From a virus (taxonomy: Duplodnaviria > Caudoviricetes), in the IMG/VR virus record IMGVR_UViG_3300037067_013378, positions 71,614 through 135,613 of that record: a stretch of 64,000 nucleotides of DNA; one strand, given 5' to 3'. Both the position numbers and the translations under genes were made by a program. The notes under the pieces are model-generated. The model was not told where the DNA came from. It did no database searches and saw nothing but the letters and a program-made list of their open reading frames with translations. Below are positions 3,744-42,245 of the stretch, piece by piece. The stretch's first letter is position 1. Each line of letters starts with the position of its first letter.

Positions 3744-3788
3744 CTTTTTTATTTTAATGATATATAATTTAAAAATAATTTTTTGTGA

Positions 3789-17390: not shown

Positions 17391-18719
17391 ATGAACTACC
17401 ACTAAACTAATGATTTAGTAGTTTCAGGTTTCATAGACTCGTCTACTGACAACGCCTCCACCTGTTTTTGTTTAATGTCCGACTCAATTCCTGAACCAGA
17501 CAATATTTTTAGACCTTGTTTTAAAATATTTTTACTTGCGTTAAAATCTCTATCATGATTTTCTCCACAAGAAGGACAAATCCATTCTCTAATGTTTAAA
17601 TTTAAATCTTGGTAAATCCATCCACAATTAGAACACATTTTTGATGAAGGAAAATATCTATCTATTTTAATAAAATGTTTATCGTTCCATTCACATTTAT
17701 ATTCCAGTTGTCTATAAAATTCACCCAAACTAACATCAGAAAATGATTGAGCTAAACTATGATTTTTCATCATATTTTTTACTGATAAATCTTCAACACA
17801 AATGATATCGTGGTTTTTGACTATTTCTGTGCTAATTTTATGTAGATAATCTTTTCTAATATTAGTTATTTTTTCATATATTATTGCAAGTTTTTTTCTT
17901 TGTTTATTTCTACTTGAACTATTTTTTACTTTTTTTGATAATTGTCTTTGTTTATGTTTTAATTTCTTTATATTATTTTTTAATGTTTTTATATTTTCAT
18001 AAATTTTTCCATCTGAAAGTATAGCTAAATCTTTTATACCAGTATCTATTCCTATTTTTGAACCAGTTTTTTCAAACTGTTCATGTTGAACTTCACAAGT
18101 TATTGATACATAATATTTTCCTGTTGTTGATTTAGATATCGTAGCAAATAATATTTTATCATTAATTTCTTTATATAAACATATTTTTATTCCTTCATTA
18201 AATTTTGGAATATACAATATATTATTTTTTATGGTTACAGATTGTGGTGTTTTAAATGACTGTCTATCATATTTTGATTTAAATTGTGGAAATTTAGTTT
18301 GTTTTCTAAAGAATTTCATATATGAAACATCTAAATTTCTTAGAGCAGACTGAAGTGATTGACTATTAATTTCTTTTAACCAAATAAAATTTTCATCCTT
18401 TTTTAACTGAGTTAAATCATTTGCATTATCATAATAATTAAGAGTTTTCTTATCTTCAATATAAGATTCTTTTCTTTTGTTTAAATAATGATTAAAAACA
18501 AATCTACAAGCACCGAAATGTTTAGACAACAATATTTCTTGTTCTTTTGTTGGATAAATTCTAAACTTAAATGATTTAAATATAGTTTTCATTATAACTA
18601 TATATTAAATTTTTTAAGTCTATTTTTACATTTTTTATACTTTTTTGTAGATTTTTTTTTAATTATTTTTAAATTATATTTGAAATTCATCCACGAAACT
18701 AAAGATTTCGTGGTTTTCT
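17391..18719 (-). mobile_element. IS200/IS605-family (IS1341-type, TnpB-only) insertion sequence
   Basis: Related subterminal hairpins CCACGAAA-N7-TTTCGTGG (18691-18713) and CCACTAAA-N7-TTTAGTAG (~17399-17421); right end TCAT, flanking TTGAA; no TSD. Confidence 0.8.
17402..18592 (-). CDS. tnpB: RNA-guided endonuclease TnpB
   Basis: HTH FKFRIYPT, RuvC GIDTG / VEDL / DRDFNA, zinc ribbon CSNCG..CPSCG. Confidence 0.95.
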   Translation of the reverse strand: MKTIFKSFKFRIYPTKEQEILLSKHFGACRFVFNHYLNKRKESYIEDKKTLNYYDNANDLTQLKKDENFIWLKEINSQSLQSALRNLDVSYMKFFRKQTKFPQFKSKYDRQSFKTPQSVTIKNNILYIPKFNEGIKICLYKEINDKILFATISKSTTGKYYVSITCEVQHEQFEKTGSKIGIDTGIKDLAILSDGKIYENIKTLKNNIKKLKHKQRQLSKKVKNSSSRNKQRKKLAIIYEKITNIRKDYLHKISTEIVKNHDIICVEDLSVKNMMKNHSLAQSFSDVSLGEFYRQLEYKCEWNDKHFIKIDRYFPSSKMCSNCGWIYQDLNLNIREWICPSCGENHDRDFNASKNILKQGLKILSGSGIESDIKQKQVEALSVDESMKPETTKSLV

Positions 18720-19985: not shown

Positions 19986-19998
19986 TATTTTTTATTAG

Positions 19999-20073
19999 TG
20001 GGCCTGACAGGGCTTGAACCTGTGACTTCCAGATTATGAGTCTGGCACTCTAAACCAACTGAGTTACAGGCCC
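19999..20073 (-). tRNA. tRNA-Ile2/Met(CAT), probably Ile2
   Basis: CCAGA-CT CAT AA-TCTGG; GGGCCTG acceptor typical of Ile2. Confidence 0.9.
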
Positions 20074-20254
20074 AGTTTAAAGATTTTTATATATTGTATA
20101 AATATAATATAATTATTTATTATAACAAAATATTTTCTTAAAATAATATATTTTTATCTAATTTATTTTGTTTTATTAATTCTACATCTTTTTTCTTTAA
20201 AATAATTAAAATATTCTTTTATAATATTTTCGTCAATTGAATATCTGAAAACCA

Positions 20255-20554
20255 TTATAATTTTTTTATAATTTTCATTTTATTAGCTAAATACCAAACA
20301 CCACCTTGATGTTCTGGTCTAACCATTTTTTGAAAATCATCTATTTCTACTTCATACCAACATCTTTCTTTTTCTGTTAAATGTGGAGCAAAAGGTTTTG
20401 ATGTACAGTGCCAAAATGGTCTATATGTATATCCTTTTGTTGGATGTGGTTCAGCATGTAACCAAACACCAATAGGTATTACTAATTTTTTATTAATAAA
20501 AAGTGGCCCAATTGTACCATTTTTTCTAACTCTTAATAATTTATAAGCTTTCAT
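20255..20554 (-). CDS. Hypothetical protein
   Basis: Well-formed ORF, RPFWHC..QGGVWYLA. Confidence 0.65.
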   Translation of the reverse strand: MKAYKLLRVRKNGTIGPLFINKKLVIPIGVWLHAEPHPTKGYTYRPFWHCTSKPFAPHLTEKERCWYEVEIDDFQKMVRPEHQGGVWYLANKMKIIKKL

Positions 20555-20557
20555 ATT

Positions 20558-21260
20558 TTAATGTTTAATATCTAATATATTATAAATCTTTTTAATTCTA
20601 TCATAATTATTAAATTCATTTTCATTTGTGAATAAAACAATTTCATCATCTTCTAATGAATCTAATATTTCTATTTTCAAATTTTTAAATATTGAATGAC
20701 ATCCAATTTTATATATTTGTTTTATAAAATTATAATGAATAAAATCAGACACATATAAGAATTTTATTTTAACATTATTATCTTCTTCTAAACATTTTAT
20801 TATATAAAAAAAATTAGATGTAAATTTTAAACATAATGGTTGATCAACATGAATATAATCATATGTTTCTATATACTCTTTAAATATCATCTTCAATAAT
20901 ATTATTATTCAAATCTGGATAAATTTCTTTTAATTTAAGAATTCTATCTATGTTTTCAAATTCATATAAACTCGTAGTGAATATAATTTCATCATTTTTA
21001 AAATTATAAGCTTTTATATATTTTTTATATAACTTATTATATGGTTTATTAATATGATAATTACGTGAACTTACTAAATAAGAACCAATATTATATGAAA
21101 CAATTATATAATCAACATTTAAATAATTAGTTTTTATTTTAAATTCATTAGATAATGACATTATATATTTTGATAATAATGTTGCTTTATCTTTCATACT
21201 TAAAGATATCTGTTGTAATTCTTTTTCAATATCATAACCTAATTTATAAATACCTATCAT
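20558..21260 (-). CDS. Two tandem related hypothetical genes (20558-20896, 20880-21260)
   Basis: Shared DEI.(L/F)T...EF.N.DRI.K C-terminal segment. Confidence 0.55.
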
Positions 21261-21421
21261 TATTCTTCAGTGTTAAAAGATTTAGGATGTTTAGGTTTTC
21301 TTGTATAGGTTTTTTCTGATTTATGAACCTTATGCATAGATTTAAATCCTTTGTTAAGTTCAAGTTCGGCTTCTCTTGAACCTCTTCTGTTAGCTTTTAT
21401 ATAATCAGAAACTTTTTTCAT
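21260..21421 (-). CDS. 53-aa basic protein, not in ORF track; possible ArfA/BrfA-like ribosome-rescue peptide
   Basis: MKKVSDYIKANRRGSREAELELNKGFKSMHKVHKSEKTYTRKPKHPKSFNTEE; TATATTTG promoter at 21441-21448. Confidence 0.55.
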   Translation of the reverse strand: MKKVSDYIKANRRGSREAELELNKGFKSMHKVHKSEKTYTRKPKHPKSFNTEE

Positions 21422-21476
21422 AAAAGTATTTATTAAAATACAAATATAAGTTTTTTCTAAATAATAATGAAAAATA

Positions 21477-21993
21477 TTATAAAATTTCTTTTATTTTTCT
21501 TATTCTAATATTCTTTTTTGAATTATAAGAATTATCACAATCTGGATTAATACAATACTTTTTTCCAAACAGTTTTGGTTTTCTTATTCTCGATGAACGA
21601 CATATTGGACAATCACAATTAGAACCTTCTCTAATTATTCTACCAATTGGAGGTTTTGGTGGTTTTGGTGGTTCTGGTATTCTGTTATTCATCTATTTTA
21701 TTTAATTTATTTATTCTTTCTTTTCTAATTTTTTCTTTTCTTATTGTTTCTTCATCAATACCATAAATTTCAATTGGTTCACATTGTTTAATAATATATG
21801 GACATATAATTAAACCTTGATATTGTTTGTATGCTTTCCTAATATCACTATTCCAAAACTTCCAAGATTTAATTAACTTAAATAATTTTTTAGAATCTAA
21901 ACCTTTATCACCATCATCATTAATATAAACTGCAGATTTTATTCTCCAACCAAACATGGATATCATATCATCAATGTTATAGAATTTTTTCAT
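21477..21993 (-). CDS. Two small hypothetical genes (21477-21692 zinc-ribbon; 21685-21993), both with RxxK motif
   Basis: CPIC..CINPDC; end RIRKIKEIL and RINKLNKIDE. Confidence 0.55.
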
Positions 21994-22056
21994 ATAGATA
22001 ATATTTATAATTTATTTAAAAGTTTTAACTAAATTTAAAATATTTTTATTATATTT

Positions 22057-22965
22057 TTAAATATCATAAACTTTAAACCATTCTTTAAGTGTTGATTTAC
22101 CAATTTTATATTTTTGACACATTTTAGCTTTTGATTTTAAAATATTATAATCTTCTATTAATTGTTCTTTTGGTAGTATTGATTTTGTTTTAAATTGTTC
22201 AACAATATCTTTTATATTATATTTAATTAACCATTTTTTAACAGCGTTATCAGTTACATTATATTTTTTACCAACTTGTATATTACTTTTTAATATTTTG
22301 AAATCTTCTAATAATTGTTCTTTAGTTGGTATATTCTTATTCATGAAAATATTACGACACTCATTAGAACAAAATGTTTCATTAGATGTTTCTTTACCAC
22401 ATTCTTTACAGATATTTAATTTTTTTACTGTTCTTTCAACTTTAATTTTTTCTTTTTTAATGTAAATATTTGGTGTTTTAATATCTTTTATATCATCAAT
22501 TGTTTCTATAATATTTCTATTTTTTAAATTTTTTGAACGAAATGTTTCTGTTAAACTATGACAATTTGGACATAATATTTGTAGATTTTCAAGTAAATTA
22601 TTACTATTATCACCATCTATATGATGTAATTCTATTGGTATAGGCTGTCCTAACCATTCTGTATTATTACAATTCTCACATCTATGTTCTTTTAATCCTT
22701 CTTTTATTAATCTATTTTTTAATTTATGTGTATTTCTATATGGAGAATTTTTAACTAATATTTCTTCTAATGTTTGTTTAAATACACTTTTTTTATTTAT
22801 TCCTTTTCCAGATGGATTGGTAAAATAACAATTTAATTCTATTGCTCTTTTTTTAAAAGAATTAAAATGTATTCCTAATTTTTTAGCAGCTTGTGCCATA
22901 GTTAATGATGTTTTACAAACTTCAATAAATACATCATCATTAATTCTGTCTTTTATTTTTAACAT
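22057..22965 (-). CDS. HNH homing endonuclease with duplicated C-terminal HTH
   Basis: CENC..ELHHIDGDNSNNLLENLQILCPNCH. Confidence 0.9.
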   Translation of the reverse strand: MLKIKDRINDDVFIEVCKTSLTMAQAAKKLGIHFNSFKKRAIELNCYFTNPSGKGINKKSVFKQTLEEILVKNSPYRNTHKLKNRLIKEGLKEHRCENCNNTEWLGQPIPIELHHIDGDNSNNLLENLQILCPNCHSLTETFRSKNLKNRNIIETIDDIKDIKTPNIYIKKEKIKVERTVKKLNICKECGKETSNETFCSNECRNIFMNKNIPTKEQLLEDFKILKSNIQVGKKYNVTDNAVKKWLIKYNIKDIVEQFKTKSILPKEQLIEDYNILKSKAKMCQKYKIGKSTLKEWFKVYDI

Positions 22966-23052
22966 ACTTTAATATTATTTTTAAAGTATATATTAAAAAA
23001 AAGTAGGCACAAAAAGAAAAATAAATACGTGTCTATTAAATTATAGAAAATA

Positions 23053-23082
23053 AAAAAGACACTAATTGAATTAGTGTCTTTT
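23053..23082 (-). terminator. Intrinsic terminator after tRNA-Leu
   Basis: AAAAGACACTAATT/AATTAGTGTCTTTT. Confidence 0.7.
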
Positions 23083-23085
23083 AAG

Positions 23086-23174
23086 TAGCGGTAGTCGGAG
23101 TTGAACCGACAAGGCAGCTTTCGCTAACCGATTGATTTTAAGTCAATTGCGTTTCCCAATTTCGCCATACCGCC
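23086..23174 (-). tRNA. tRNA-Leu(TAA)
   Basis: ATTGA-CT TAA AA-TCAAT, long variable arm. Confidence 0.93.
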
Positions 23175-23217
23175 ATCATATAGAACAAAGTTAGTAATAA
23201 TTTTTTAATAAACAAAA

Positions 23218-23478
23218 TTAATATTCATATTTTAATATAATTTTATTATGATTACATATAATTTCATTAATTAATTTTTTATTACAATTAACCATAACAT
23301 AAACATCATCTAAATTATTTGAAGAAGTATTCAAAATATTTAATAGTTCATCTCTATCTAAATACGGTTTATTACCACTTGGATGCCAAATTACATTTTT
23401 ATTAGACAAAATAATTTCATTACTACGTATAAGTTGTGTACCATATTTAACTATGGTATATACATCATAGTTTGGCAT
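23218..23478 (-). CDS. Hypothetical protein
   Basis: ORF track. Confidence 0.45.
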   Translation of the reverse strand: MPNYDVYTIVKYGTQLIRSNEIILSNKNVIWHPSGNKPYLDRDELLNILNTSSNNLDDVYVMVNCNKKLINEIICNHNKIILKYEY

Positions 23479-23893
23479 TTTTTGTAATTTTTCAATTAAT
23501 TCTATTTTTTCATAAAATTATTTCTTATTTTTTTCTTTCTTTTCTTCTTTCTTTTCTAACTTTTTCCATTCACTCTTAGGACAATAATTATAACCATTAT
23601 TTAGATAAGACTTAACATCTTTTTCTTTAGCTCTTATTACATCGCTGTTTCTCTTTAATGTTTTCATATTAATTATTATTTTTTGTTAACAAAATACTAT
23701 TTTTATCTAATTTTTTATTGTGTTGATAAATATTATCATGTTTAAATTTTAAAGATTTTATATCAAGTTCCTTATTACCTATAATTTTTCCTTCATTAGA
23801 AAAAATAAGTTCAAATGCTCTAATATCTATCATAATTTTTATTTTTCTTCTTATATTCAACAAAACAAAATTTGTTTATTTTATTTTCATATG

Positions 23894-23967
23894 TAGCGAT
23901 GATCAGAGTTGAACTGATGACCCTTGGATTATGATTCCAATGCTCTAACCAACTGAGCTACATCGCT
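23894..23967 (-). tRNA. tRNA-Met(CAT), elongator-like
   Basis: TTGGA-AT CAT AA-TCCAA. Confidence 0.92.
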
Positions 23968-23970
23968 ATT

Positions 23971-24363
23971 TTAGCTTAAAATTTCTTTTGAAATTTGGCT
24001 TGCCATTTTTAAATCAATAGAATTAATAATAGGTAATTTTTTTAATTCAACAATAATTTTACCCATATCTTTCATACCAGAAAAATTATTTTTTGAAATG
24101 ATATCACTTATAATATTTTTAGTTTGATCGTAACTAATAGTTACTGGTAAATATTCATTTATAATAGAAACTTCCATATTATTCTTCATCATTTCAGCAT
24201 TTTCCTTCATTTTACGAAGTATTTTTAAAATATCTTCGTCACTAACATCTTTACCAATTCTATTCATTTCTCCAATAAAAACTCTTAACAAAGACTTTTT
24301 ATTTTCATTCTTATCAAGCATAGCTTGTTTAAGATCACTTTGTATTCTTTCTTGTAGTTTCAT
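23971..24363 (-). CDS. GatB/YqeY domain protein (true start 24363)
   Basis: MKLQERIQSDLKQAML..EYLP..MKDMGKI; track start lies inside a tRNA. Confidence 0.85.
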   Translation of the reverse strand: MKLQERIQSDLKQAMLDKNENKKSLLRVFIGEMNRIGKDVSDEDILKILRKMKENAEMMKNNMEVSIINEYLPVTISYDQTKNIISDIISKNNFSGMKDMGKIIVELKKLPIINSIDLKMASQISKEILS

Positions 24364-24381
24364 AGATTTATAATTATTTAG

Positions 24382-24455
24382 TGGCGGGAGATGGACTCGA
24401 ACCATCGACCTTCAGGTTATGGGCCTGACGAGCTACCAACTGCTACCATCCCGCA
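24382..24455 (-). tRNA. tRNA-fMet-like (CAT) with C33
   Basis: TGCGGGATGG..GGTAGCTCG, TCAGG-CC CAT AA-CCTGA, 1:72 mismatch. Confidence 0.9.
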
Positions 24456-24503
24456 ATATGTCTATTCAAATATAATATATTTTTTATCATTTAACAAAAA
24501 AGA

Positions 24504-26033
24504 TTAAATAAAATTTTTTATTTTTTCTTTTCTTAGTTCTTTAAGTAAATTTAATTTAACTTCAAATATATCAGAACCTCTAACTCTATAAAATCTTACC
24601 ATTATATTTAATTTATTATTAGTATAGATATCAAATAAACTTAAACCATATAATTTTAATAAATCTTTAATATTATTTTCAATTATTTCTGGTTTTAATT
24701 CTGAATTTTTTAAAGATAATAATTTATGTATAATATTATTTTTGTAATTATTACAAACTTTATTATAATCAGATTGTGTCATTTTCTATATTTGTTAATT
24801 TAAGTTTTCTAATTACCTTATCAATATTACTTATATTTACTTTAAAAAATTTAATATATTGATGTTTGTTATAACATAATATAATTTTATCGGTTTCTAT
24901 TTTATCAAAAATTTCTATTATTATTTCAGCTTTGTCGTTTATATTACTGGAAGATTTTTTACATTTTTTTAATGTGTTTGATATTAGATTAATTAATTGT
25001 GTGTTACTATAAAAACAAACTTCATTGAAATCAGTTTTCATTTTATTTAATACATTTATATAAATATCATCTATATTCATTTAAAAAAATATTTTATTTT
25101 CTTTTTTAAATATCTGCATATATTCTTTAAGATTTTCCACAATTTCTTTTTTAGACAATTTTCTAATTTCTTTATCATTAAAAATATTTTCGTATAATTC
25201 TCTAAAGAATTCTAACAATAATTTTTCTTTATTATTATTTACTATATATTTTAATTCTACAATTTCATCTTTCAGTTCATCCACTTCTTTTTGAAGTTCT
25301 AATATTTTATCTTTATCATCCATGTTAATTAATCATTAAAAATATTATTTAATTTATATTTTCTTATAATTTGAGTTATTCTTTTTTTATTAATATAAAA
25401 TACTGGATAAGCTCTACCTTCAATTGATATTATAATTTTTATTATTTTCTAATTTATATATAAAAGTTGATATTTCATTTTCTCTATATGCAATAGAGAA
25501 AAGTGAATATACATCTTCAATTAATATATACAAATTTTGAAAATTTATTTCCGTTTTATTTGAAAACTTTTCTAATAATTTTTCTAATATATACAATTCA
25601 AATTTTATCATGATTTATTAAAAATTGGATTTTCTATTATGTTATATTTTCTTTTATTTTTTATTTCCAAAGCATTATTTATTTTTAAAATTCTACTATA
25701 TTTTTTTCTTTCAGTTTCTATATGTTCAAAAAAATGTTTACTTTTTTCATTTAAAGTTTCATTAATAATACCATCACAAAAACCACTATAAGATGATAAT
25801 TTGATTAATAAAAAATTAAGATTAAGATTATTTTGTCTTATTATATTTTTTAATAATGTAGTATCATCATATTTATTAGTTTTTGTTACAATAAAAATAT
25901 TATTATAATAAACAAAATAATAAATTGAATCTTCTACTTTAGTTGTTTGTAACATATAATAATCTAAAGTTTTTATTAAATTAATATAATTTTTTTCTAT
26001 ATTATTATTAAATACGTGTAATAAAAATTCCAT
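24504..26033 (-). CDS. Cluster of small hypothetical genes (24504-24782, 24769-25080, 25081-25323, 25420-25611, 25608-26033)
   Basis: Abutting co-oriented ORFs, three with RxxK motif. Confidence 0.55.
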
Positions 26034-26049
26034 AGTTTTAATTTTTTTG

Positions 26050-26135
26050 AGATGGGTGTGAGATTCGAACTCACGCTGGCATTTTATTGCAACAATTTTG
26101 CAGATTGTTCCCTTCAACCACTCAGGCAACCCATC
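26050..26135 (-). tRNA. tRNA-Cys(GCA) with long variable arm
   Basis: ACAAT-CT GCA AA-ATTGT, U73, 86 nt. Confidence 0.88.
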
Positions 26136-26659
26136 ATATAATCAATAGTTTTTTCTTCGTATATTCTTCTTATTTTATTTTTTAAAACATTTTCAATATG
26201 TGTTATATTTACATTATTTAAATTTATTTTTTCTAATATTGAAAGAGTTTCTTCTGAAAGAACCCACTGCAATTCTAATTTAATTTTATATTCAAAATTT
26301 TCTTGTATATTTTTAATAATTAAAGGTGAATCTGACCATCCACCATATTTAAGAAAATATTCTATATCATTATAATTAAACAAAGAAACTGCACCCATAT
26401 AAACATATTGTTTATTATTTGGATATTTATCATCAAGAAATTTTAATTTTGGATTTAATTCTAATAATTTATTATACCTTTCTAATGTAGGTTTATTATT
26501 ATCACTAAATCTAAAATCATTCAAAAAAGATAAATTCCAGTTTTCATATAATTTACAATCTAAAATTAAAGATAAAAACAAACTATAAAAACATTCATGT
26601 TTTTGTTTATTATCATGAATATAATATTTTTCATTATTTGTTTTTATTAAAGATAACAT
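26114..26659 (-). CDS. Hypothetical protein; stop codon lies inside tRNA-Cys
   Basis: ORF track. Confidence 0.55.
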   Translation of the reverse strand: MLSLIKTNNEKYYIHDNKQKHECFYSLFLSLILDCKLYENWNLSFLNDFRFSDNNKPTLERYNKLLELNPKLKFLDDKYPNNKQYVYMGAVSLFNYNDIEYFLKYGGWSDSPLIIKNIQENFEYKIKLELQWVLSEETLSILEKINLNNVNITHIENVLKNKIRRIYEEKTIDYMMGCLSG

Positions 26660-26807
26660 AATAGTTTAAAATATTAATATAAAATTATAAGACAATATAA
26701 ATTAATAACAATAAAAATAATTAAACAGATTATACCAACAATATTTTGATATTTATTATACCATATATCACTATTAAAAAAATTAATAATATTTTTAATT
26801 TTATTTA

Positions 26808-27248
26808 TCATAATATTTTATTTAATTTATGAACTCTTTGAATTTTTTTAACACTTTCTTTATTTGTTATTTTTGTTGTATTTAAATTTTCTGGAATTAT
26901 ATTCAATATTAAATATTTCTTTTCTTTTCTTGAAACTCTTGATATATATCCACATCTACATAAAGAATTAAGATAATTATCTATTTTTTTATTAGCTGAA
27001 TCATTCATAAAATTATAATACTCACTATCATTAATATCAAAAATATCATCAACCTTATAAGAATTAATAAAATCAATTAAATAATTAAAAGGTTTCTTAT
27101 AATGTAAAAGATATCTTTCACATAAAAAATAAGAATAAGTATCATGTTGTATATGACCTAATTTTAACAAATTTAATATAGATGCTATAAATTTTATATT
27201 ATCTACATCTTTTCTTTTTTTCAGTATATCTATTTCTCTTGCTTCCAT
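26808..27248 (-). CDS. Hypothetical, winged-helix-like, with RxxK motif
   Basis: IDNYLNSLCRCGYISR; ends RVHKLNKIL. Confidence 0.55.
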   Translation of the reverse strand: MEAREIDILKKRKDVDNIKFIASILNLLKLGHIQHDTYSYFLCERYLLHYKKPFNYLIDFINSYKVDDIFDINDSEYYNFMNDSANKKIDNYLNSLCRCGYISRVSRKEKKYLILNIIPENLNTTKITNKESVKKIQRVHKLNKIL

Positions 27249-27253
27249 TCTTT

Positions 27254-28531
27254 TTATTTTTTACTCTTATCATATGTTCTGGACTTAGCTTTGAAAGATA
27301 ATCTGTTAAAATTCGACCTACAAATTTTAGATTTCAATATATCATCTTTTGCTATAAAAACCCAACCTTCTGCTAATTGTGTTGGATTATTACCGAAAAC
27401 AGTGTAAAAATTATCTACATCTTTAAGTAACATTTCAGATGTTTCTGGTAATTTAAAATTATTATCAAGAATAGGAACTGTGTTTAACATCATTTCTTTA
27501 ATCATATCAATGAATTCATCATATGGGTAATAAAGAGATGTTTTAATATCAAAACTATTGTAAAAACAAATAGTTTTTTCTTTCAGTTTATAAATATTAC
27601 CTTGAATACCATCACCAACCAATTCACCTTGCAAAGAAAAATTAGGAATATTAAATTTAGAAGAAAATTCCCTCATTTTTTCTTCTACATTTAATTTTAT
27701 TGTAGTACTCCAATAATAGTTTACCAATTCATCATTCTCTGGTTTTTTGTAATTTATATTTCTACCACAAACACTAAACTCACCATTTTTTAAATTACAT
27801 GCGATGCTTGTACCTTCAAGTTTTTCGGTCTTATAATACAAGAATTGTTTTAATTTCTCATAATTTTTTTCCAAATTTTCAACTCTTTCTTCATCACTAA
27901 CCAAAATACCTACTTGTGCTAAATCACCAAGTACAATACCACCGTTAGAATTAACTTCAGGTGCTACATATTGAATAATACCTATAATATCAGTAACATC
28001 AAAATCTTCATCTAAAACTCTAACGTTTTTATTATATTCATTATTTGTTTGTTCAATAAAAACCTTATTGTTATTTGTAAATATTTTAGTGTTTTTATTA
28101 TTCAAAATTGATAATGGAAAACAAATACCTTGTGAAATCTGACCAAAAATTTCTCTTGTTTTAATACGAAATTTTCTTTCCCTTAAAAATTCAAATTCTG
28201 GTCTTGTGTTTTGTTTAGAAATTTCTTCCATTTCTTTCTTTATAGAAATTTTTTCTTCATCAACTTTTGATTTAGATAATTTCTTCTGTAATTCTTTCCA
28301 ACTCTGTTGTAATTCTTGTGATAAACCATCAGGCAAAACAGAATCAACTTCAACATATATACACAAATCACCAGCTTTAAACTCATTCTTCTTAACTACA
28401 ACATTCCAACCTCTAACTTTAGCTAATTCTAAATTATCAGAATCTTCAATTTGTGAAATATTTAAAATCTTTGCAACAGTTGCAAGTTTTCTGATATTTG
28501 CTGTTTCATTGATGTTTTGTACGTTTTCCAT
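27254..28531 (-). CDS. RNA ligase, DRB0094/Rnl2-related family
   Basis: RKLATV..GWNVVV..DSVLP N-domain; TEKLEGTS (motif I), QGELVG, EGWV, SFKAKS. Confidence 0.9.
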   Translation of the reverse strand: MENVQNINETANIRKLATVAKILNISQIEDSDNLELAKVRGWNVVVKKNEFKAGDLCIYVEVDSVLPDGLSQELQQSWKELQKKLSKSKVDEEKISIKKEMEEISKQNTRPEFEFLRERKFRIKTREIFGQISQGICFPLSILNNKNTKIFTNNNKVFIEQTNNEYNKNVRVLDEDFDVTDIIGIIQYVAPEVNSNGGIVLGDLAQVGILVSDEERVENLEKNYEKLKQFLYYKTEKLEGTSIACNLKNGEFSVCGRNINYKKPENDELVNYYWSTTIKLNVEEKMREFSSKFNIPNFSLQGELVGDGIQGNIYKLKEKTICFYNSFDIKTSLYYPYDEFIDMIKEMMLNTVPILDNNFKLPETSEMLLKDVDNFYTVFGNNPTQLAEGWVFIAKDDILKSKICRSNFNRLSFKAKSRTYDKSKK

Positions 28532-28538
28532 AATTTCA

Positions 28539-28937
28539 TTATTTTATTTTAGTCCAAACAATTTTCAGTGAATCTTCTTTTGATATCCAAATCATTTTAT
28601 TATTCTTAATTGAAAATAAAAAATTGATTTTGTTATCTTTATTTATATCTGTTTTTTCAAAATATGTTGAATCTTTAAAATATTGTTTATTTAAAATTAT
28701 ATTATCTGAAATAATATTAAATGAATCCGTAGGATATTTAAAACTTATTTTTTGGTCTGTTAATTGCAAATAATAAATATTATCGTGTGTAAAAATACAT
28801 TGAAACCAAAAATCATCATCATAATAAGTAAATCTCTCAGATTGCCACTTACCATAAATGTTATCATTTAATGTAGTTATATCTTTATTACAACCACAAA
28901 AAATAATCATCAATATTATTAAATGTAATTTTTTCAT
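28539..28937 (-). CDS. Putative lipoprotein (lipocalin-like)
   Basis: Signal ending FCGC; IYGKW. Confidence 0.55.
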   Translation of the reverse strand: MKKLHLIILMIIFCGCNKDITTLNDNIYGKWQSERFTYYDDDFWFQCIFTHDNIYYLQLTDQKISFKYPTDSFNIISDNIILNKQYFKDSTYFEKTDINKDNKINFLFSIKNNKMIWISKEDSLKIVWTKIK

Positions 28938-29305
28938 ATATCTTTATCTGCTTTTCTTTTATTACAAATTTCACACATAGTTCTATAATTAGATATTATA
29001 TTTTTTCCACCTTTAGATTTTGCTTTTATATGATCTTTTGTAAACAAAATCTCTTTTCCATCAGAATTCACACCATATAAATTTAAATGATAATTTAATG
29101 ATGGGTCTTCTTTAATTCTTTCAACAGCAAAATATTTTCCTTCTATACCACAATCACAACACTTAATACTATTTTGAAACACTTTATATCTTTGTGATGT
29201 AATTTTAACTGGTACATTAAATAATGTAATATATTCATTTTTACCTGTTTTGTTTTTTAAATCAGGTAAAATATTCAAATCTATTATTCCAACTCTAATT
29301 ATCAT
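28934..29305 (-). CDS. Small HNH endonuclease
   Basis: CCDCG..TKDHIKAKSKGG..N..MCEICN..K. Confidence 0.85.
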   Translation of the reverse strand: MIIRVGIIDLNILPDLKNKTGKNEYITLFNVPVKITSQRYKVFQNSIKCCDCGIEGKYFAVERIKEDPSLNYHLNLYGVNSDGKEILFTKDHIKAKSKGGKNIISNYRTMCEICNKRKADKDI

Positions 29306-29405
29306 AAAAAATTATATAGCTGCATAAATAGCAACAAATGTTATACTTATAATCATAAATATAAGTAAAACAACATACCAATTAATTGAAAATGTTTTCA
29401 TAATA

Positions 29406-29699
29406 TTATACATTATTATATTTAGAAACTAATTCATCTCTCAAATCATCAGTATATTTTGAATTAGGTATAAAAATGATGTTTGTACCAATACCACCAA
29501 TAGTTGATGGTTTATGAAAAACATAAAAATTGGTATCTCTTTTAATCCTATCTGAAATGTTACCAGATGAATTATATACATGTACTAATGTAAAAGTGTC
29601 GTTAATCTTATTATTTCTTATATCTTTAAGAAGTTCAATAACATTATCCATATCATCAAGAGATAGATTTGAAAATTCGTTTACAATTGTTTGTATCAT
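29406..29699 (-). CDS. Hypothetical protein (likely start 29699)
   Basis: TATATTTG promoter just upstream. Confidence 0.5.
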   Translation of the reverse strand: MIQTIVNEFSNLSLDDMDNVIELLKDIRNNKINDTFTLVHVYNSSGNISDRIKRDTNFYVFHKPSTIGGIGTNIIFIPNSKYTDDLRDELVSKYNNV

Positions 29700-29751
29700 A
29701 ATATTAAAATTTGACACAAATATAAGAATTTTTTGTTGAAATAAAAAATAA

Positions 29752-30648
29752 TTAATAATAATATGTTTTTTTATAATCATTTTCTAAAAAATAGGCATAT
29801 TTTATTAAAAAATTTTTTTCATAACCACCAGCGACTTCATCTGAATTTACATAAACCAAATTATTAAAATAATCAATATTTTCTTTATATTGTTCTTTTA
29901 TATAATACCAATTAAAACCACCATCTTGAACAATTATTTTATTAAAATTAGTAGATAAAATAGTTAATTTTTTTGTAAATGTAATATATAAAGCATACTT
30001 ATGACTAATTGGATAATATAAAAAATCATTACTCATGATTATATTGATATCACCTGTTATAAATGGGTACTTATTAAATAAACTATTTTTAATAAAAAAC
30101 CATTTACTGTTACAATTTAGTAAATAACTTAAATATTTTTGTTTTTCACTTGAATTTAAAAAACATAAATGAGCATCTTTTATATTTATATTAGAAACCT
30201 CTTTAAAAATATTGTTTAATTCAATTTCTATTATTTTTCTAATTTTATTTGATCTAAGCCATTCATAAATCAAATATTCAGCTATTAAAGGATATTTTTC
30301 TTTTATATCTAAATTTATATCACCAGATTCTATAATTTCGAAAATATTTGAAAAAATATCTTTAGCCTTTTGTTCGCTTTTTCCTAATATAGATGTTTCT
30401 ACATAATAAACATCATTTAAATTTAAGTGTTTTGCCATTTCATCAGATAATCTATAATAATTATTTTTACTAAAAACCTCTTCACATGTTCTTTCACCAT
30501 GTTCATTATAAATGTTTTTATTATTTTTTACCAAATAAAAAATTTTAGATTGTCTGTCATATGAATTATCATATGAAAAGTTTATTAATTGTGCCATTAT
30601 TGGACTTATATGATGATTTTGTGCCATTACTAAATTATTAATTTTCAT
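29752..30648 (-). CDS. DUF4238-like protein
   Basis: QNHHISP N-terminus; FITGD..YYPISHKYAL. Confidence 0.55.
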   Translation of the reverse strand: MKINNLVMAQNHHISPIMAQLINFSYDNSYDRQSKIFYLVKNNKNIYNEHGERTCEEVFSKNNYYRLSDEMAKHLNLNDVYYVETSILGKSEQKAKDIFSNIFEIIESGDINLDIKEKYPLIAEYLIYEWLRSNKIRKIIEIELNNIFKEVSNINIKDAHLCFLNSSEKQKYLSYLLNCNSKWFFIKNSLFNKYPFITGDINIIMSNDFLYYPISHKYALYITFTKKLTILSTNFNKIIVQDGGFNWYYIKEQYKENIDYFNNLVYVNSDEVAGGYEKNFLIKYAYFLENDYKKTYYY

Positions 30649-31348
30649 AATTTTTTAACCATTTTCTTATAGAATTATCTGAAACATTATATTTTCTTCC
30701 TGTTCCAGAATAACCTAATTCATTAATTTCAATAATTAATTGTTCATATGGTGGTCTTTCAACTTTTCTTTTTTTAGAATCTTTCTTATAACATTCTAAA
30801 CATCTATCACTATTTTTTGCCATTATATTACCGCATTCAGGACAAATATGTTCCTTTTTTTCTTTTTTAATTTTAATAGGTTGTATTTTACTTTTAAGAT
30901 TTTTTCCACAATGTGTATCAAGTGTTGCATTACAATTTGGACAAACAATTCTTAAATTTTCTATTCTGTTATCATTAGGTACACCATTTTTATGGTCTAA
31001 AATTAAACTCATATGCTTACCATTCCATTCTTCTCCTTGTCCACACATTTCACATATTCTTTCTTTTAATCCTTCTTTATATAATCTTTCTTTTAAATGA
31101 TTTGATGATTTATAATCTGATTTTTCTACTAAAATTTCTGTTAAATCTCTCTTAATATAATTTTGATTTAATAAATTTTTAGTTCTTCCAAAATGACTAA
31201 TATCAATATTAAATAATTTTATATAAGATGTTAAAGTATTATAATTACCTCCAAAATTTTTTAAGTTTAAATTTTTTAAAACATCTGTTTTATTATTAGA
31301 ATTTAATATAATTTCTCTTAATTCTTTTTCTGTAATATTCCATTTCAT
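30638..31348 (-). CDS. HNH homing endonuclease with C-terminal HTH
   Basis: LDHKNGVPNDNRIENLRIVCPNC; GRKYNVSDNSIRKW. Confidence 0.9.
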   Translation of the reverse strand: MKWNITEKELREIILNSNNKTDVLKNLNLKNFGGNYNTLTSYIKLFNIDISHFGRTKNLLNQNYIKRDLTEILVEKSDYKSSNHLKERLYKEGLKERICEMCGQGEEWNGKHMSLILDHKNGVPNDNRIENLRIVCPNCNATLDTHCGKNLKSKIQPIKIKKEKKEHICPECGNIMAKNSDRCLECYKKDSKKRKVERPPYEQLIIEINELGYSGTGRKYNVSDNSIRKWLKNYEN

Positions 31349-31412
31349 AATAGATTCTGTTATTTTTTAATTTATATATTAAAAAATATCGAACCCATTC
31401 GGAAAAAAAATG

Positions 31413-31495
31413 TGGGTGCAGAGAGATTCGAACTCCCGAAGTCCTAAGACTGATGCTCTACAGGCATCCGCAGTTGACCACTTTGCTATACACCC
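31413..31495 (-). tRNA. tRNA-Tyr(GTA)
   Basis: GATGC-CT GTA GA-GCATC, long variable arm. Confidence 0.93.
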
Positions 31496-31528
31496 ATTTA
31501 ATAAAAAAAGAAGTGTAATATATTTCAA

Positions 31529-31921
31529 TTACACTTCTTCATCTTTAAACAGTTCTTTTAATTTCAGATAACGAACTTTTTTCACCAAAAAACCTTGAAT
31601 TATTTTCTTCATTTCCTCATTCGAACCGAAGTAAGAATGATCAGATAATAAATACAACAATTCAACTTTTTCAGGTTCAAATTGTCCTTCAAATCCATAA
31701 CAAGAACAGTGTCCACCATGAACCTCATACAGTTCACCCGAAGATTTCTCTAAGAGTAAAAAATAAGAAGATTCTTCATACCCATCGCCATTAACTTCAG
31801 CAATTAAGATAAAGTATCTTTCTATCTCATGTTTTTCAACATGGTAGCTATATACAACATCATTAACAACATCGTCATATGACATACCTGAGTAGTCATC
31901 TAAAAATAAAAATTTTTCCAT
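31529..31921 (-). CDS. Hypothetical phage protein
   Basis: LYEVHGGHCSCYGFEGQ; RYLKLKELF. Confidence 0.7.
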   Translation of the reverse strand: MEKFLFLDDYSGMSYDDVVNDVVYSYHVEKHEIERYFILIAEVNGDGYEESSYFLLLEKSSGELYEVHGGHCSCYGFEGQFEPEKVELLYLLSDHSYFGSNEEMKKIIQGFLVKKVRYLKLKELFKDEEV

Positions 31922-32052: not shown

Positions 32053-32529
32053 TTATTTTCTTTTATTTAAAATATAATGTAATGTTCCTTTACTTGATAT
32101 ATTAAAATGATTCATTGTTTCTTTATATGAACGACATTTATTATAAAAATCAATAATTTCATTTGCTTCATATTTAATAATAAAAGAGGATGCATGTTTA
32201 GCATGTTTTTGTCTTTCTTCTTTAGGTGTGTCCATCATATTTTGACTTTTTGTGCCAAAATTAATATTATTCCAACTATTATCAATCTTATTGTTATTTA
32301 AATGTCTAATATCATAATTACTTTCATAAATTATATCACCAAATTTTTGATAAGCGACTAATTTATGAACATAACAACACATTATTTTATTTCCAAATCG
32401 TAAAGAAAAAATATAATAATTTTTTTTACTATCTAAATATATTTTTCTTTTTTTATTATATATGTTAAATACATTTCCATATTTATCTACATAATAACCT
32501 TTTTCATAAGCAATTTTTTCTACATGCAT
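32053..32529 (-). CDS. HNH endonuclease (HNH_3/I-HmuI-like)
   Basis: VHKLVA..IRHLNNNKIDNSWNNI..TKSQN. Confidence 0.85.
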   Translation of the reverse strand: MHVEKIAYEKGYYVDKYGNVFNIYNKKRKIYLDSKKNYYIFSLRFGNKIMCCYVHKLVAYQKFGDIIYESNYDIRHLNNNKIDNSWNNINFGTKSQNMMDTPKEERQKHAKHASSFIIKYEANEIIDFYNKCRSYKETMNHFNISSKGTLHYILNKRK

Positions 32530-32583
32530 AACTATTTTTATTTTTTATATCAATAAAATATAAAATAGTTTAAATATTTTTAG

Positions 32584-32657
32584 TACTGCCGATGAGATTC
32601 GAACTCACATTTCAAATCTTGAAGGGATTTTTTCCTGGCCAATTAGAAGACAGCAGC
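32584..32657 (-). tRNA. tRNA-Glu(TTC) with C33
   Basis: AAATC-CC TTC AA-GATTT. Confidence 0.88.
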
Positions 32658-32686
32658 ATATAAAATAATCAAATATTTATAAAAAG

Positions 32687-32762
32687 CGGTGCGTATGGGA
32701 TTTGAACCCATGAACTCAAGCGTGACAAGCTTGCATGATAGACCAGACTTCACCAACGCACC
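32687..32762 (-). tRNA. tRNA-Asp(GTC)
   Basis: CAAGC-TT GTC AC-GCTTG, G73. Confidence 0.93.
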
Positions 32763-32769
32763 ATATTAT

Positions 32770-32785
32770 CAACATGTCAAAGAAC
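32770..32785 (-). promoter_or_regulatory. boxA-like antitermination element
   Basis: GTTCTTTGACATGTTG; core shared with 41172-41185. Confidence 0.6.
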
Positions 32786-32793
32786 AATTTTTG

Positions 32794-32866
32794 CGGGAAT
32801 AACAGGGATCGAACCTGTAACCTACTGGTTAACAGCCAGTTGCTCTACCAATTGAGCTATATTCCC
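32794..32866 (-). tRNA. tRNA-Asn(GTT)
   Basis: ACTGG-CT GTT AA-CCAGT. Confidence 0.95.
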
Positions 32867-32877
32867 AAAAAATATAG

Positions 32878-32951
32878 TTGCGGGAGGTGGATTCGAACCA
32901 CCGACCTCTTGATTATGAGTCAAGCAAGCTGACCAACTGCTCTACCCCGCA
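32878..32951 (-). tRNA. tRNA-Met(CAT), initiator-like body
   Basis: TGCGGGGTAGAGCAG; CTTGA-CT CAT AA-TCAAG. Confidence 0.92.
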
Positions 32952-32960
32952 ATATTTCTT

Positions 32961-32973
32961 TTAAAGAACTCTT
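32961..32973 (-). promoter_or_regulatory. boxA-like element after first tRNA of array
   Basis: AAGAGTTCTTTAA, identical to 40987-40999. Confidence 0.6.
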
Positions 32974-32975
32974 AG

Positions 32976-33057
32976 TACCCCTAGAAGGACTCAAACCTTC
33001 ACGCCTTTCGGCACATGATCCTAAGTCATGGATGTCTATCAATTCCACCATAGGGGC
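32976..33057 (-). tRNA. tRNA-Leu(TAG)
   Basis: CATGA-CT TAG GA-TCATG; A19/U56 variant. Confidence 0.9.
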
Positions 33058-33060
33058 ATA

Positions 33061-33091
33061 AAACAAAAAAACCAGCTTTTCGGCTGGTTTT
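33061..33091 (-). terminator. Attenuator terminator ahead of minus-strand tRNA array
   Basis: AAAACCAGC-CGAAAA-GCTGGTTTT plus T-run, 3 nt before tRNA-Leu. Confidence 0.85.
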
Positions 33092-33113
33092 CTTTATATA
33101 TTTATTCAAATCT

Positions 33114-33209
33114 TTATTTTGAACATACACATAGTTCCACCAGCTTAGATTTTGTCATCTCTTCATCTAAGTTATTAAGTAGATAATTATATATGTTACA
33201 ATTTTCCAT
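33114..33209 (-). CDS. Leader peptide A (31 aa) MENCNIYNYLLNNLDEEMTKSKLVELCVCSK
   Basis: ATG..TAA read by hand; contains GCTGGT complementary to terminator 5' arm; codons 1-18 match downstream tRNAs. Confidence 0.8.
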   Translation of the reverse strand: MENCNIYNYLLNNLDEEMTKSKLVELCVCSK

Positions 33210-33281
33210 TTGAATTTATTTTAATTTTATTTTTACTTATATATTCTTTTTAAAATGTCATTTTTTTCCGAAATGACTTTG

Positions 33282-33313
33282 CAAATATAAAACTTATATT
33301 TCAATATTCCAAA
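33282..33313 (-). promoter_or_regulatory. Bacteroidota-type housekeeping promoter for leader A
   Basis: TTTG-N20-TATATTTG. Confidence 0.75.
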
Positions 33314-33376
33314 AAAGTTTGCACATTTTTTTAAAAATATTTAAAATATTTTTCATTTATCTGATTATCAATATAT

Positions 33377-40640: not shown

Positions 40641-40671
40641 TTTGTTTTTTAAAATATAAGTACTATATTTG
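40641..40671 (+). promoter_or_regulatory. Bacteroidota-type housekeeping promoter for leader B
   Basis: TTTG-N19-TATATTTG. Confidence 0.75.
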
Positions 40672-40725
40672 CAAAATCAAATTTAGAAAAAAACGATATT
40701 TTTTAAAGAATATATAATAAAACAA

Positions 40726-40830
40726 ATGAGAAATAATATTAACATATCAGTGATTAGTTCGATTAAACGCCATTGGTCATTTAAAAACCAAATGGGTCTG
40801 GTATGCTTATATCTTTTTTGTAATGTATAA
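40726..40830 (+). CDS. Leader peptide B (34 aa) MRNNINISVISSIKRHWSFKNQMGLVCLYLFCNV
   Basis: ATG..TAA read by hand; contains GGTCTGG complementary to terminator 5' arm; codons 8-20 match downstream tRNAs. Confidence 0.8.
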   Translation: MRNNINISVISSIKRHWSFKNQMGLVCLYLFCNV

Positions 40831-40856: not shown

Positions 40857-40889
40857 AAAATCCAGACCACAAAAAGGTCTGGATTTTTT
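40857..40889 (+). terminator. Attenuator terminator ahead of plus-strand tRNA array
   Basis: AAAATCCAGACC-ACAAAAA-GGTCTGGATTTT plus T-run. Confidence 0.88.
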
Positions 40890-40911: not shown

Positions 40912-40985
40912 GGGGGTATCGGCAATTGGCTAGTCAAACTGACTCCAAATCAGTATCAGTGGGAGTTCGAATCTCTCTGCCCCTG
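40912..40985 (+). tRNA. tRNA-Trp(CCA)
   Basis: ACTGA-CT CCA AA-TCAGT, G73. Confidence 0.9.
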
Positions 40986-41378: not shown

Positions 41379-42245
41379 ATGAATAATATTAATTGGGTTG
41401 AAGTTCAAAAATTTTATGATGATAATCATTTTTGGAAAGATGTTTTAAAAGAATTTAAGTTAAATAACGAAAAATTATGTAATGGTGTTAAATTAGGTTA
41501 TTTTAAAACAAGAAATAGAGAAGAATCATCAAAATTACATAACCAATTATATCCAAGAAAACATACAGAAGAAAGTAAAAAATTAATATCAGAAAAAAGA
41601 AAAAAATTTTTAATTGAAAATCCAGATAAAGTTCCATATTTAATGAATCATTATTCTAAAGGTGATAGTTATCCAGAAAAATATTTTGAAAATATTCTTA
41701 AAAAATATAATATTAATTATATTAAAAAATATAGAATTCACACATATGAATTAGATTTTGCAATTTTAGATAAGAAAATTGATATTGAAATTGATGGAGA
41801 ACAACATTATTTAGATAAAAGAATTATTGAATCTGATAAGAGAAGAAATATTTATTTAGAAAATGATGGCTGGGTTATATTAAGAATAAGATGGTCAGAT
41901 TATCAAAAATCAAATAAAGAAGAATATGTTAAAAATTTTATTAATTATTTAAACGATTTAACTTTAAATACACCCATATTTAATATAATTGAAAAAATTG
42001 ATTCACATAAAAATTATTGTGAATGTGGAAATATAAAATGGAAAAGTTCAAAAATTTGTTTATCTTGTTATAATAAAAAAAGAATGTTATATAAAAAACC
42101 ATCTTATGAACAATTACTTAATGATATAAAAGAAACAAATTATTCTGCAACAGGAAGAAAATATGGAGTTTCAGATAATTGTATTAGAAAATGGTTAAAA
42201 AAATATAAAACGGAATATAGCTCAGTTGGTAGAGCATCTGACTGA
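41379..42245 (+). CDS. DUF559/Vsr-like endonuclease with NUMOD3-like motif and C-terminal HTH
   Basis: YELDFA..IEIDGEQH..GWVILRIRW; GRKYGVSDNCIRKW. Confidence 0.85.
   Translation: MNNINWVEVQKFYDDNHFWKDVLKEFKLNNEKLCNGVKLGYFKTRNREESSKLHNQLYPRKHTEESKKLISEKRKKFLIENPDKVPYLMNHYSKGDSYPEKYFENILKKYNINYIKKYRIHTYELDFAILDKKIDIEIDGEQHYLDKRIIESDKRRNIYLENDGWVILRIRWSDYQKSNKEEYVKNFINYLNDLTLNTPIFNIIEKIDSHKNYCECGNIKWKSSKICLSCYNKKRMLYKKPSYEQLLNDIKETNYSATGRKYGVSDNCIRKWLKKYKTEYSSVGRASD

Follow-up and report, generated by a model that had tools for sequence, protein, structure and literature searches.

Candidate leader-peptide attenuators preceding isotype-sorted tRNA arrays in a large phage

Introduction

Leader-peptide attenuators control the trp, his, leu and pheA operons of enterobacteria, and multivalent forms precede thr (Thr and Ile) and ilvGMEDA (Ile, Leu and Val). 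A component of the translation apparatus is reportedly controlled in the same way: the pheM leader, described by Springer and colleagues in the 1980s, is said to attenuate pheST, which encodes the phenylalanyl-tRNA synthetase of E. coli. In a T-box, too, the choice between terminator and antiterminator depends on the state of tRNA in the cell.

Dozens of tRNA genes are found in large phages, and we know of no answer to the question of how they decide when to express them. A full-text literature search on leader-peptide or attenuation control of tRNA operons or of phage tRNAs gave no relevant paper. In function, the published system that comes closest is an inducible tRNA L-array, the trn operon of Anabaena PCC 7120, which is silent by default and is switched on when translation is impaired (PMC8421152, PMC10272220). 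TrcR, a repressor that recognizes direct repeats, controls this array by acting on its promoter (PMC8421152, PMC10272220). The 2021 paper on this array does not mention attenuation, a leader or a terminator.

This study was concerned with a locus within a window of 64,000 nucleotides of phage DNA, in which a short leader ORF and a terminator precede an array of tRNA genes. The locus is called cassette A and its ORF leader A. Cassettes of this kind resemble the enterobacterial attenuators in that each has a short ORF with a run of regulatory codons, a terminator and an antiterminator that share a strand, a predicted partner of the antiterminator strand (region 2) that in most cassettes overlaps the regulatory codons, and a leader stop codon located before the terminator. 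They differ from the enterobacterial attenuators in that their output would be tRNAs and not biosynthetic enzymes, and in that their leaders list 7-10 specificities, as against one to three. In addition, the phage antiterminator, with 6-10 bp, is short, region 2 is followed by the stop codon at a distance of 16-31 nt, which is further than in the trp leader, and the cassettes are phage-borne and present in three paralogous copies.

The cassettes would share with pheM the leader-peptide attenuation of a translation-apparatus component in response to charged tRNA. However, pheM controls a synthetase, responds to a single amino acid and is chromosomal. The T-box, unlike the phage cassettes, binds one uncharged tRNA directly and does not need translation. 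The Anabaena array is controlled by a promoter and repressor, whereas the phage cassettes carry a leader and terminator. An RNA ligase gene is linked to both systems, rtcB in Anabaena and a PHROG 968 RNA ligase in the array behind leader A.

Genome setting and tRNA arrays

The window makes up the right-hand end, 64 kb, of an IMG/VR virus record that is 135,613 bp long and has a G+C content of 21%. CheckV gave a completeness of 19% for the whole record, from which the complete phage genome would measure roughly 0.65-0.7 Mb, the record being a fragment of it. No close relative of this phage was found among the GenBank phages searched. The listed sequencing runs that contain this DNA are metagenomes from groundwater, landfill, wastewater and digesters, and no RNA run is among them.

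The ARAGORN program detected 28 tRNA genes in the record, in addition to an intron-containing Arg(UCU). All of these genes lie within three arrays, A, B and C, which jointly cover every codon box. Array A extends on the minus strand from 33057 down to 19998, with the genes in the order Leu(TAG), CAT, Asn, Asp, Glu, Tyr, Cys, CAT, CAT, Leu(TAA) and CAT. Its proximal block (32583-33057), which contains Leu(TAG), CAT, Asn, Asp and Glu, is directly 3' of the terminator of cassette A, and its distal members (19998-31495) are Tyr, Cys, CAT, CAT, Leu(TAA) and a last CAT tRNA that is a probable Ile2. Array B is on the plus strand, begins with tRNA-Trp at 40912 and holds nine tRNA species. Array C, also on the plus strand, starts 430 nt before the window and contains Gly, Pro, Ala, Gln, Pro, Gly, Thr and Arg-UCU.

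Of the 126 long ORFs in this genome, just 2 have a motif resembling a Shine-Dalgarno (SD) sequence, and A-rich sequence lies 5' of the start codons. From what is known of Bacteroides promoters, we take these SD-less, A-rich starts and the TTTG-N19-20-TAnnTTTG blocks in the cassettes to point to a Bacteroidota host. The host is thus probably a member of the Bacteroidota.

Elements of cassette A

Cassette A is on the minus strand. It begins with a promoter-like block (33282-33313) that consists of TTTG (33313-33310), 20 nt and TATATTTG (33289-33282). The block fits the Bacteroidota -33/-7 promoter consensus. In an alignment with the cassettes described below, the block is kept in 8 of 10. A 5' hairpin (33257-33277) follows, with the stem GTCATTT/AAATGAC, an A-rich loop and then a T-run. 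All ten cassettes keep the GGAAAAAA-like loop and the T-run of this hairpin, while the stem differs between cassettes (GTCA/TGAC, ACAT/ATGT, ACG/CGT and ATC/GAT). The next element is the conserved GAATATATAAG box (33236-33246), 26 nt 5' of the ATG. The sequence AATATATAA is invariant in 10/10 cassettes, and a similar box is present in the cassettes of the Lak-A1 megaphage.

Leader ORF A (33114-33209, minus strand) has 31 codons and a TAA stop, and no SD motif. Codons 1-18 (33156-33209) constitute its regulatory run. Region 1 has the core CTTAGAT (33165-33171) in codons 13-15, and its partner ATCTAAG is at 33150-33144. Region 2, GCTGGT (33139-33144), occupies codons 22-24 and is a copy of the 3' arm of the terminator. 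It can pair with ACCAGC (33087-33082) in a predicted antiterminator. A spacer hairpin with the core TTCAAA/TTTGAA (33096-33134) lies inside the loop between regions 2 and 3 and holds the stop codon (33116-33114). The intrinsic terminator itself (33065-33094), which comprises regions 3 and 4, consists of ACCAGC, a 6-nt loop, GCTGGT and seven T residues, and its hairpin alone has a predicted energy of -13.7 kcal/mol.

A preliminary description of this DNA had proposed the pairing of GCTGGT in the ORF with ACCAGC of the terminator, and both sequences are where it placed them. The TTCAAA/TTTGAA hairpin that it proposed is also seen in predicted folds. Its third pairing, a 1:2 hairpin of CTTAGAT and ATCTAAG overlapping region 2, holds in part: the hairpin does occur in predicted folds, but the overlap with region 2 is a single base and the pairing is weak (P 0.32).

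The T-tract of the terminator ends 8 nt before tRNA-Leu(UAG), which starts at 33057. A separate promoter downstream of the terminator, driving tRNA-Leu, had been named as a finding that would speak against attenuation, and the 8-nt gap leaves no room for one. Since the terminator is this close to tRNA-Leu, the first five tRNAs of array A would be transcribed only by read-through.

Codon content of leader A

The claim that the first 18 codons of the ORF at 33209-33114 are all decoded by array A proved accurate, with the codons exactly as quoted and the coordinates correct. The specificities in the run are Met, Glu, Asn, Cys, Ile-ATA, Tyr, Leu-CTN, Leu-TTR and Asp. Every specificity of array A had been said to appear in it, and all nine are indeed found within the 18 codons.

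The codon set of array A accounts for 45% of the codons in long ORFs, and a run of 18 is therefore unexpected. No other array-A run in the 135.6-kb record, all six frames counted, is as long, and the next longest are 16 and 14. The run is also specific to its frame, as the two other frames each give a match at just 6 of the 18 codons, and none of 20000 mononucleotide shuffles matched leader A at 18/18. When the segment from codon 2 up to region 2, which was set without reference to codon class, was analyzed for enrichment in codons of the leader's own array (own class), the values were P = 3e-4 for leader A, 8e-3 for leader B and 1.5e-13 for leader C. The ORF tails of leaders A, B and C were tested in the same respect and no own-class enrichment was found.

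Two of the codon matches had been described as conditional. The first, CTT, depends on decoding by Leu(UAG) through its U34. Leu(UAG) is the only CTN tRNA of the phage and the A leaders of related phages also use CTT, which are both in favor of the match. In many bacteria, codons that end in U are read in four-codon boxes by a modified U34. The second, ATA, depends on the CAT tRNA at 19998-20073 being Ile2, and the features of this tRNA support that identity, short of proof.

Cassettes B and C

On the sequence evidence, leaders A, B and C belong to three paralogous cassettes, each of which lists the amino acids of its own array. Cassette B is on the plus strand and has a promoter-like block (40641-40671) of TTTG, 19 nt and TATATTTG. 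Leader ORF B (40726-40830) has 34 codons, and its codons 8-20 are all decoded by array B. This run of 13 covers Ser-TCN, Val, Ile-ATT, Ser-AGY, Lys, Arg-CGC, His, Trp and Phe. Thus, all nine array B species are represented, including the rare Trp, His and Arg-CGC, in a run which is only the third longest for the array-B set in the genome. Region 2 of cassette B, GGTCTGG (40795-40801), is complementary to CCAGACC of terminator B (null p 0.006). The intrinsic terminator B (40857-40889) is located 24 nt before tRNA-Trp (40912).

The attenuator reading predicted a further cassette outside the window, ahead of array C, and one was found there. Cassette C (plus strand, genome positions 70790-71110) is just outside the window and precedes the Gly/Pro/Ala/Gln/Thr/Arg(UCU) array. 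Leader ORF C (genome 70912-71031) has 39 codons and contains 18 consecutive Gly, Ala, Pro, Gln, Thr and Arg-AGR codons. The array-C codon set represents 19% of codons, and the longest other run of this set in the genome is 8.

Cassettes in related phages

The protein encoded upstream of leader A led to two related IMG/VR genomes, G001 (639,979 bp, with terminal repeats) and G002 (675,678 bp). The pattern of the 5' blocks of the cassette led to a third relative, G003 (421,673 bp). The tRNAs of G001 and G002 are sorted into the same three classes as those of this phage, and the G003 fragment has a B-type array only. ARAGORN with relaxed settings returned mostly noise. From its output, Phe(GAA) and Gly(ACC) of G001 alone were accepted, and Asn(GTT) was read by eye.

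Seven further cassettes were identified in G001-G003, with own-class runs of 15-22 codons, and each array found is preceded by one. They are located at 11340-11254 of L003 (minus strand), 595-711 of L004, 418-549 of L005, 655-741 of L006, 3277-3143 of L007 (minus strand), 6693-6574 of L008 (minus strand) and 4186-4308 of L025. The A leaders of three lineages differ at about half of their positions, and all of the substitutions are within class A. The position of ATA also follows the tRNAs. In G001 and G002, array B includes tRNA-Ile(UAU), and all three relatives, G001-G003, have ATA in their B leaders. In this phage, which is without tRNA-Ile(UAU) and whose array A holds additional CAT tRNAs, ATA is in the leader A run. 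As G001-G003 are close to each other, the independent lineages are few, namely this phage, the G001-G003 group and Lak.

The broad scan for the cassette pattern gave 30 loci, of which five are true cassettes of G001, G002 and G003; the remaining loci have no tRNA downstream and are chance matches. Two other genomes, G004 and G005, are not of this kind. The 5'-block pattern exactly as it occurs in this phage had no match in viral contigs, and a search through the RNA ligase found no relatives.

The published genome of the Lak-A1 megaphage contains a 42-codon ORF (L041, 764-892) before a His/Pro/Arg/Gly/Cys/Met array. In this ORF, 18 of the 29 codons before region 2 belong to its own set (background 15%, P = 1e-8). 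The ORF holds a copy of an arm of the terminator, whose end is separated from tRNA-His by a few bases. A second Lak-A1 cassette precedes a mixed tRNA array. By these sequence features Lak-A1 has the same cassette design. Neither of the two papers on Lak megaphages speaks of attenuation, a terminator or a leader. Since the layout is present in a published genome, the idea can be tested on public sequences.

Co-variation and predicted folding of the switch

Each of the ten cassettes has a leader ORF of 28-44 codons that begins 8-35 nt after the conserved box and ends 19-36 nt before the terminator, and the own-class runs of 13-22 codons are seen in the correct frame only. A GC-rich stem with a T-run is located 8-149 nt before the first tRNA in 10/10 cassettes. 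Region 2 is a copy of the terminator 3' arm in all ten, at codons 21-31, right after the regulatory run.

The sequence of the switch varies between cassettes and its complementarity is kept. Region 2 and the 5' arm of the terminator read GCTGGT and ACCAGC, GGTCTGG and CCAGACC, CTGAGTG and CACTCAG, GGCAGGG and CCCTGCC, and CTGGAC and GTCCAG. The match between region 2 and the terminator has a null p of 0.003-0.13 in individual cassettes. This three-way co-variation of the predicted regions 2, 3 and 4 is the strongest structural evidence for the switch.

Folding was predicted for RNA cut before region 4. With a 30-nt footprint on codons 6-18 the 2:3 helix had a probability of about 1, and with the footprint over region 2 this helix did not form. 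For A- and B-type cassettes the 2:3 helix was also predicted to form without a ribosome or with a ribosome at the stop codon, and the discrimination between states must thus be kinetic or steric. In terms of this model, the off state must come about because the ribosome covers region 2 or because it fills the 2:3 loop with its bulk, or else through a kinetic 1:2 trap. The stop codon is inside the 2:3 loop, 16-31 nt past region 2, and its distance of 19-36 nt from the terminator stem leaves the terminator free. It is plausible that a ribosome at the stop codon would sterically block the antiterminator.

The antiterminator of leader A is a helix of only 6 bp, and as long as region 4 is absent its predicted gain is only about -1.6 kcal/mol. 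At equilibrium, the terminator state of the full-length leader A RNA is predicted at -39.9 kcal/mol versus -27.6 kcal/mol. The terminator is always favored in the full-length leader, so the decision must be kinetic. In classical attenuators the terminator state is likewise favored when the whole leader is present. In the nascent RNA, region 2 is predicted to pair back toward the regulatory codons with P 0.6-0.94 in 8 of 10 cassettes, the value for leader A being the 0.32 noted above. The upstream partners of region 2 are in or at the first codons of the regulatory part in nine of the ten cassettes, and just after the run in leader B. Minimum-energy folds pair the 5' half of the ORF, with the regulatory codons, with the 3' half that includes region 2. 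Because the tail pairs with the regulatory codons and carries region 2, RNA structure would explain why the leaders have similar tails and dissimilar heads.

Comparison with Rfam families gave only tRNAs at the gathering score over the whole window, and none of the leader families (Trp_leader, Phe_leader, His_leader, Thr_leader and Leu_leader). Below threshold, the part of cassette A from region 2 to the terminator (33063-33148) matched Trp_leader at 23.9 bits (cut-off 41) and Phe_leader at 20.8 bits (cut-off 55). The T-box family (RF00230) had no match at the gathering score, nor at E values up to 10 in 33050-33330. The predicted architecture of the cassette is that of a leader-peptide attenuator. 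It has no homologue among the Rfam leader families, and it is not a T-box.

Proposed mechanism and alternative explanations

Leader A is probably one of three ribosome-mediated attenuators, each of which would gate an isotype-sorted array and sense the supply of the tRNAs encoded there. This reading is supported by the cassette predicted outside the window and then found, by conservation and by co-variation. We infer that the ORF is translated and that stalling leads to read-through. Transcription would begin 5' of the 28-44-codon ORF, whose 5' two-thirds would serve as a list of codons for the tRNAs of the array behind it. When decoding is fast, the ribosome would pass over region 2 and on to the stop codon in the 2:3 loop, and the terminator would form. 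In an alternative route to the off state, region 2 would be kept paired with the regulatory codons, with the same outcome, termination a few bases before the first tRNA. When a listed tRNA is scarce, the ribosome would stall on the regulatory codons and region 2 would be freed for the terminator 5' arm. Pairing of regions 2 and 3 would then allow RNA polymerase to read into the tRNA genes. The net effect would be a demand-driven negative feedback for each set of tRNAs.

The predicted folds could also be read in the opposite sense, as a plain check on translation in which translation melts the 1:2 pairing and the arrays are on when ribosomes work. The equilibrium behavior of the A- and B-type cassettes, in which the antiterminator forms unless region 2 is covered, even with a ribosome at the stop codon, agrees with such a reverse switch, as does the position of the stop codon 16-31 nt past region 2. 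However, a reverse switch leaves unexplained the own-array codons of each leader and the restriction of substitutions to the codon class, and the overlap of the regulatory codons with the partner of region 2 is the layout of a stall-induced attenuator. We consider this switch unlikely. The conserved length of the ORFs and their similar C-terminal tails, rich in Leu, Val and Cys, would instead suit functional micro-proteins, the hairpin being a leaky terminator and the tRNAs arising from constitutive read-through. This is quite improbable, as the N-terminal two-thirds are unrelated in composition between the three paralogues (acidic/amide, basic/Ser/aromatic and Gly/Ala/Pro/Thr/Gln), the sequence is free to vary inside the codon class, the conservation of the tails is explained by RNA pairing, and region 2 co-varies with the terminator.

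The 5' hairpin and the AATATATAA box that precede every ORF might instead belong to an untranslated RNA sensor, either with T-box-like anticodon pairing or bound by a protein, in which the open frame would be incidental. In the ten cassettes and two in Lak, the class pattern is confined strictly to a single frame that runs from an ATG to a stop codon, which speaks against a sensor of this kind, and neither a T-box nor another riboswitch was matched. We know of no RNA that could read a series of 13-22 triplets belonging to some nine different tRNAs, and we regard an untranslated sensor as very improbable. Chance, that is, an AT-rich intergenic ORF with common codons, might be suggested by the 45% share of the array-A set, by the rank of the leader B run and by a sigma-70-like TTCAAA-17-TATAAT site inside ORF A. 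This site is not conserved in the A cassettes of the relatives, such sites are no more common than in shuffled sequence (44 versus 38.9), and the genome is Bacteroidota-like. Moreover, the leader A run is the longest of its genome, the leader C run is 18 against 8, no shuffle reproduced leader A, and 10/10 cassettes match their own array. Chance or base composition is hardly credible as an explanation and was rejected on these tests.

If the attenuator reading is true, these cassettes would be the first case of leader-peptide attenuation of tRNA genes, and thus a new use of a known kind of regulation. The logic of the trp and his operons appears to be reused, with the ribosome as sensor, the tRNAs as output and one sensor for each set. 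Demand-driven attenuation would also explain why related megaphages sort their tRNA specificities into the same three arrays, would tie the tRNA arsenals of phages to host defenses that target tRNA, and could allow the leaders to serve as reporters of tRNA availability. A broader proposal is that this modular, demand-driven tRNA supply is common to Bacteroidota megaphages including Lak and has its purpose in counter-defense. Each leader, sensing 7-10 tRNA species, would detect in cis the loss of tRNA, whether its cause is an anticodon nuclease of the host or the shut-off of the host by the phage, and replacement tRNAs and the RNA ligase of array A would be switched on. We put this forward tentatively, as a conjecture more doubtful than not.

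Distal members of array A

The identity of the last CAT tRNA of array A bears on the ATA codon of leader A. Global identity did not sort the four CAT tRNAs into Met and Ile2. The tRNA at 19998-20073 is alone among the four in having C4:G69 and C5:G68, and in the E. coli collection it matches over its full length a single tRNA, a plasmid-borne tRNA-Ile whose anticodon is CAT. These features lend weak support to its identification as a probable Ile2.

The distal members of array A are separated by ORFs that include the PHROG 968 RNA ligase and HNH endonucleases. Internal promoters had been suggested for this region; the elements seen there are instead two terminator-like hairpins, one at 31540-31507, which is 12 nt before tRNA-Tyr, and one at 23082-23054. 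They argue against a single 13-kb transcript, and it is doubtful that the leader directly controls the distal tRNAs. Direct control by leader A over 13 kb is therefore unlikely. The codon list of leader A may reflect an ancestral compact array that was later split by homing endonuclease and other insertions. G002 has such a compact array, with 12 tRNAs within 2 kb behind the leader.

Additional cassettes in the phage and in Lak-A1

A third cassette, that of leader C, is present on the plus strand just beyond the window edge (genome positions 70790-71110, equivalent to window positions -823 to -503). Its leader ORF contains 39 codons, 18 of which in a row specify Gly, Ala, Pro, Gln, Thr or Arg (the latter as AGA), and is followed by the terminator CCCACTC/GAGTGGG and then by tRNA array C. 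With introns allowed, ARAGORN identified a tRNA at 3458-3744 (plus strand) with a 212-nt insert in its anticodon loop. The exons of this tRNA read as Arg(UCU), which agrees with the three AGA codons of leader C. No Rfam match to a group I intron was obtained at this locus at E values up to 1.

The layout of a leader ORF and terminator before tRNA arrays is common to our phage and a published megaphage, Prevotella phage Lak-A1 (MK250015.1), in which it precedes both tRNA arrays (L041 764-966 and L040 4116-4305, the two Lak-A1 loci). One of these arrays comprises His, Pro, Arg, Gly, Cys and Met tRNAs, and its leader shows strong enrichment for the corresponding codons (P = 1e-8).

RNA elements of the cassettes

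At leader A, two Rfam families match below threshold at 33063-33148 on the minus strand: Trp_leader, with 23.9 bits (E = 0.008), and Phe_leader, with 20.8 bits. This span extends from region 2, the copy of the terminator 3' arm within the leader ORF, through the terminator. A 5' hairpin is also predicted from sequence at 33257-33277 (minus strand), at 40675-40700 (plus strand) and at the equivalent position in all relatives, located after the promoter block and before the invariant AATATATAA box. It has a conserved GGAAAAAA-like loop and a stem that co-varies, and is followed by a T-run. This hairpin might stabilise the 5' end, bind a protein or belong to a phage-specific promoter.

In the related phage genomes G001 and G002, a conserved block of approximately 270 nt lies immediately 5' of the A cassette. 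The block, located at L006 245-443 in G002 and also present in the G001 locus, L003, resembles HEARO, an RNA that accompanies HNH/IscB elements, at a sub-threshold level (67 bits versus a cut-off of 83, E = 2e-13).

Interior of the tRNA arrays and other features

Two terminator-like hairpins are predicted from the nucleotide sequence within array A, both on the minus strand (31507-31540 and 23054-23082). The former is only 12 nt ahead of tRNA-Tyr, and thus tRNA-Tyr too lies directly behind a predicted terminator. Array A also contains an RNA ligase (27254-28531, minus strand; PHROG 968, E = 3.5e-50). Repair of tRNAs occurs in phages exposed to anticodon nucleases, and the ligase would fit such a role here. 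HNH/homing endonuclease ORFs located between tRNA genes of array A (32053-32529, minus strand) and array B (41379-42245, plus strand) are probably insertions that lengthened these arrays.

Elsewhere, the window encodes a transposase (17402-18592, minus strand; PHROG 506) and a Lon-like ATP-dependent protease (56901-59315, plus strand; PHROG 4871). The left end of the record, outside the window, holds a tandem repeat (genome positions 517-1539) of approximately 17 copies of a unit of approximately 63 nt, each with AAACATAAGT.
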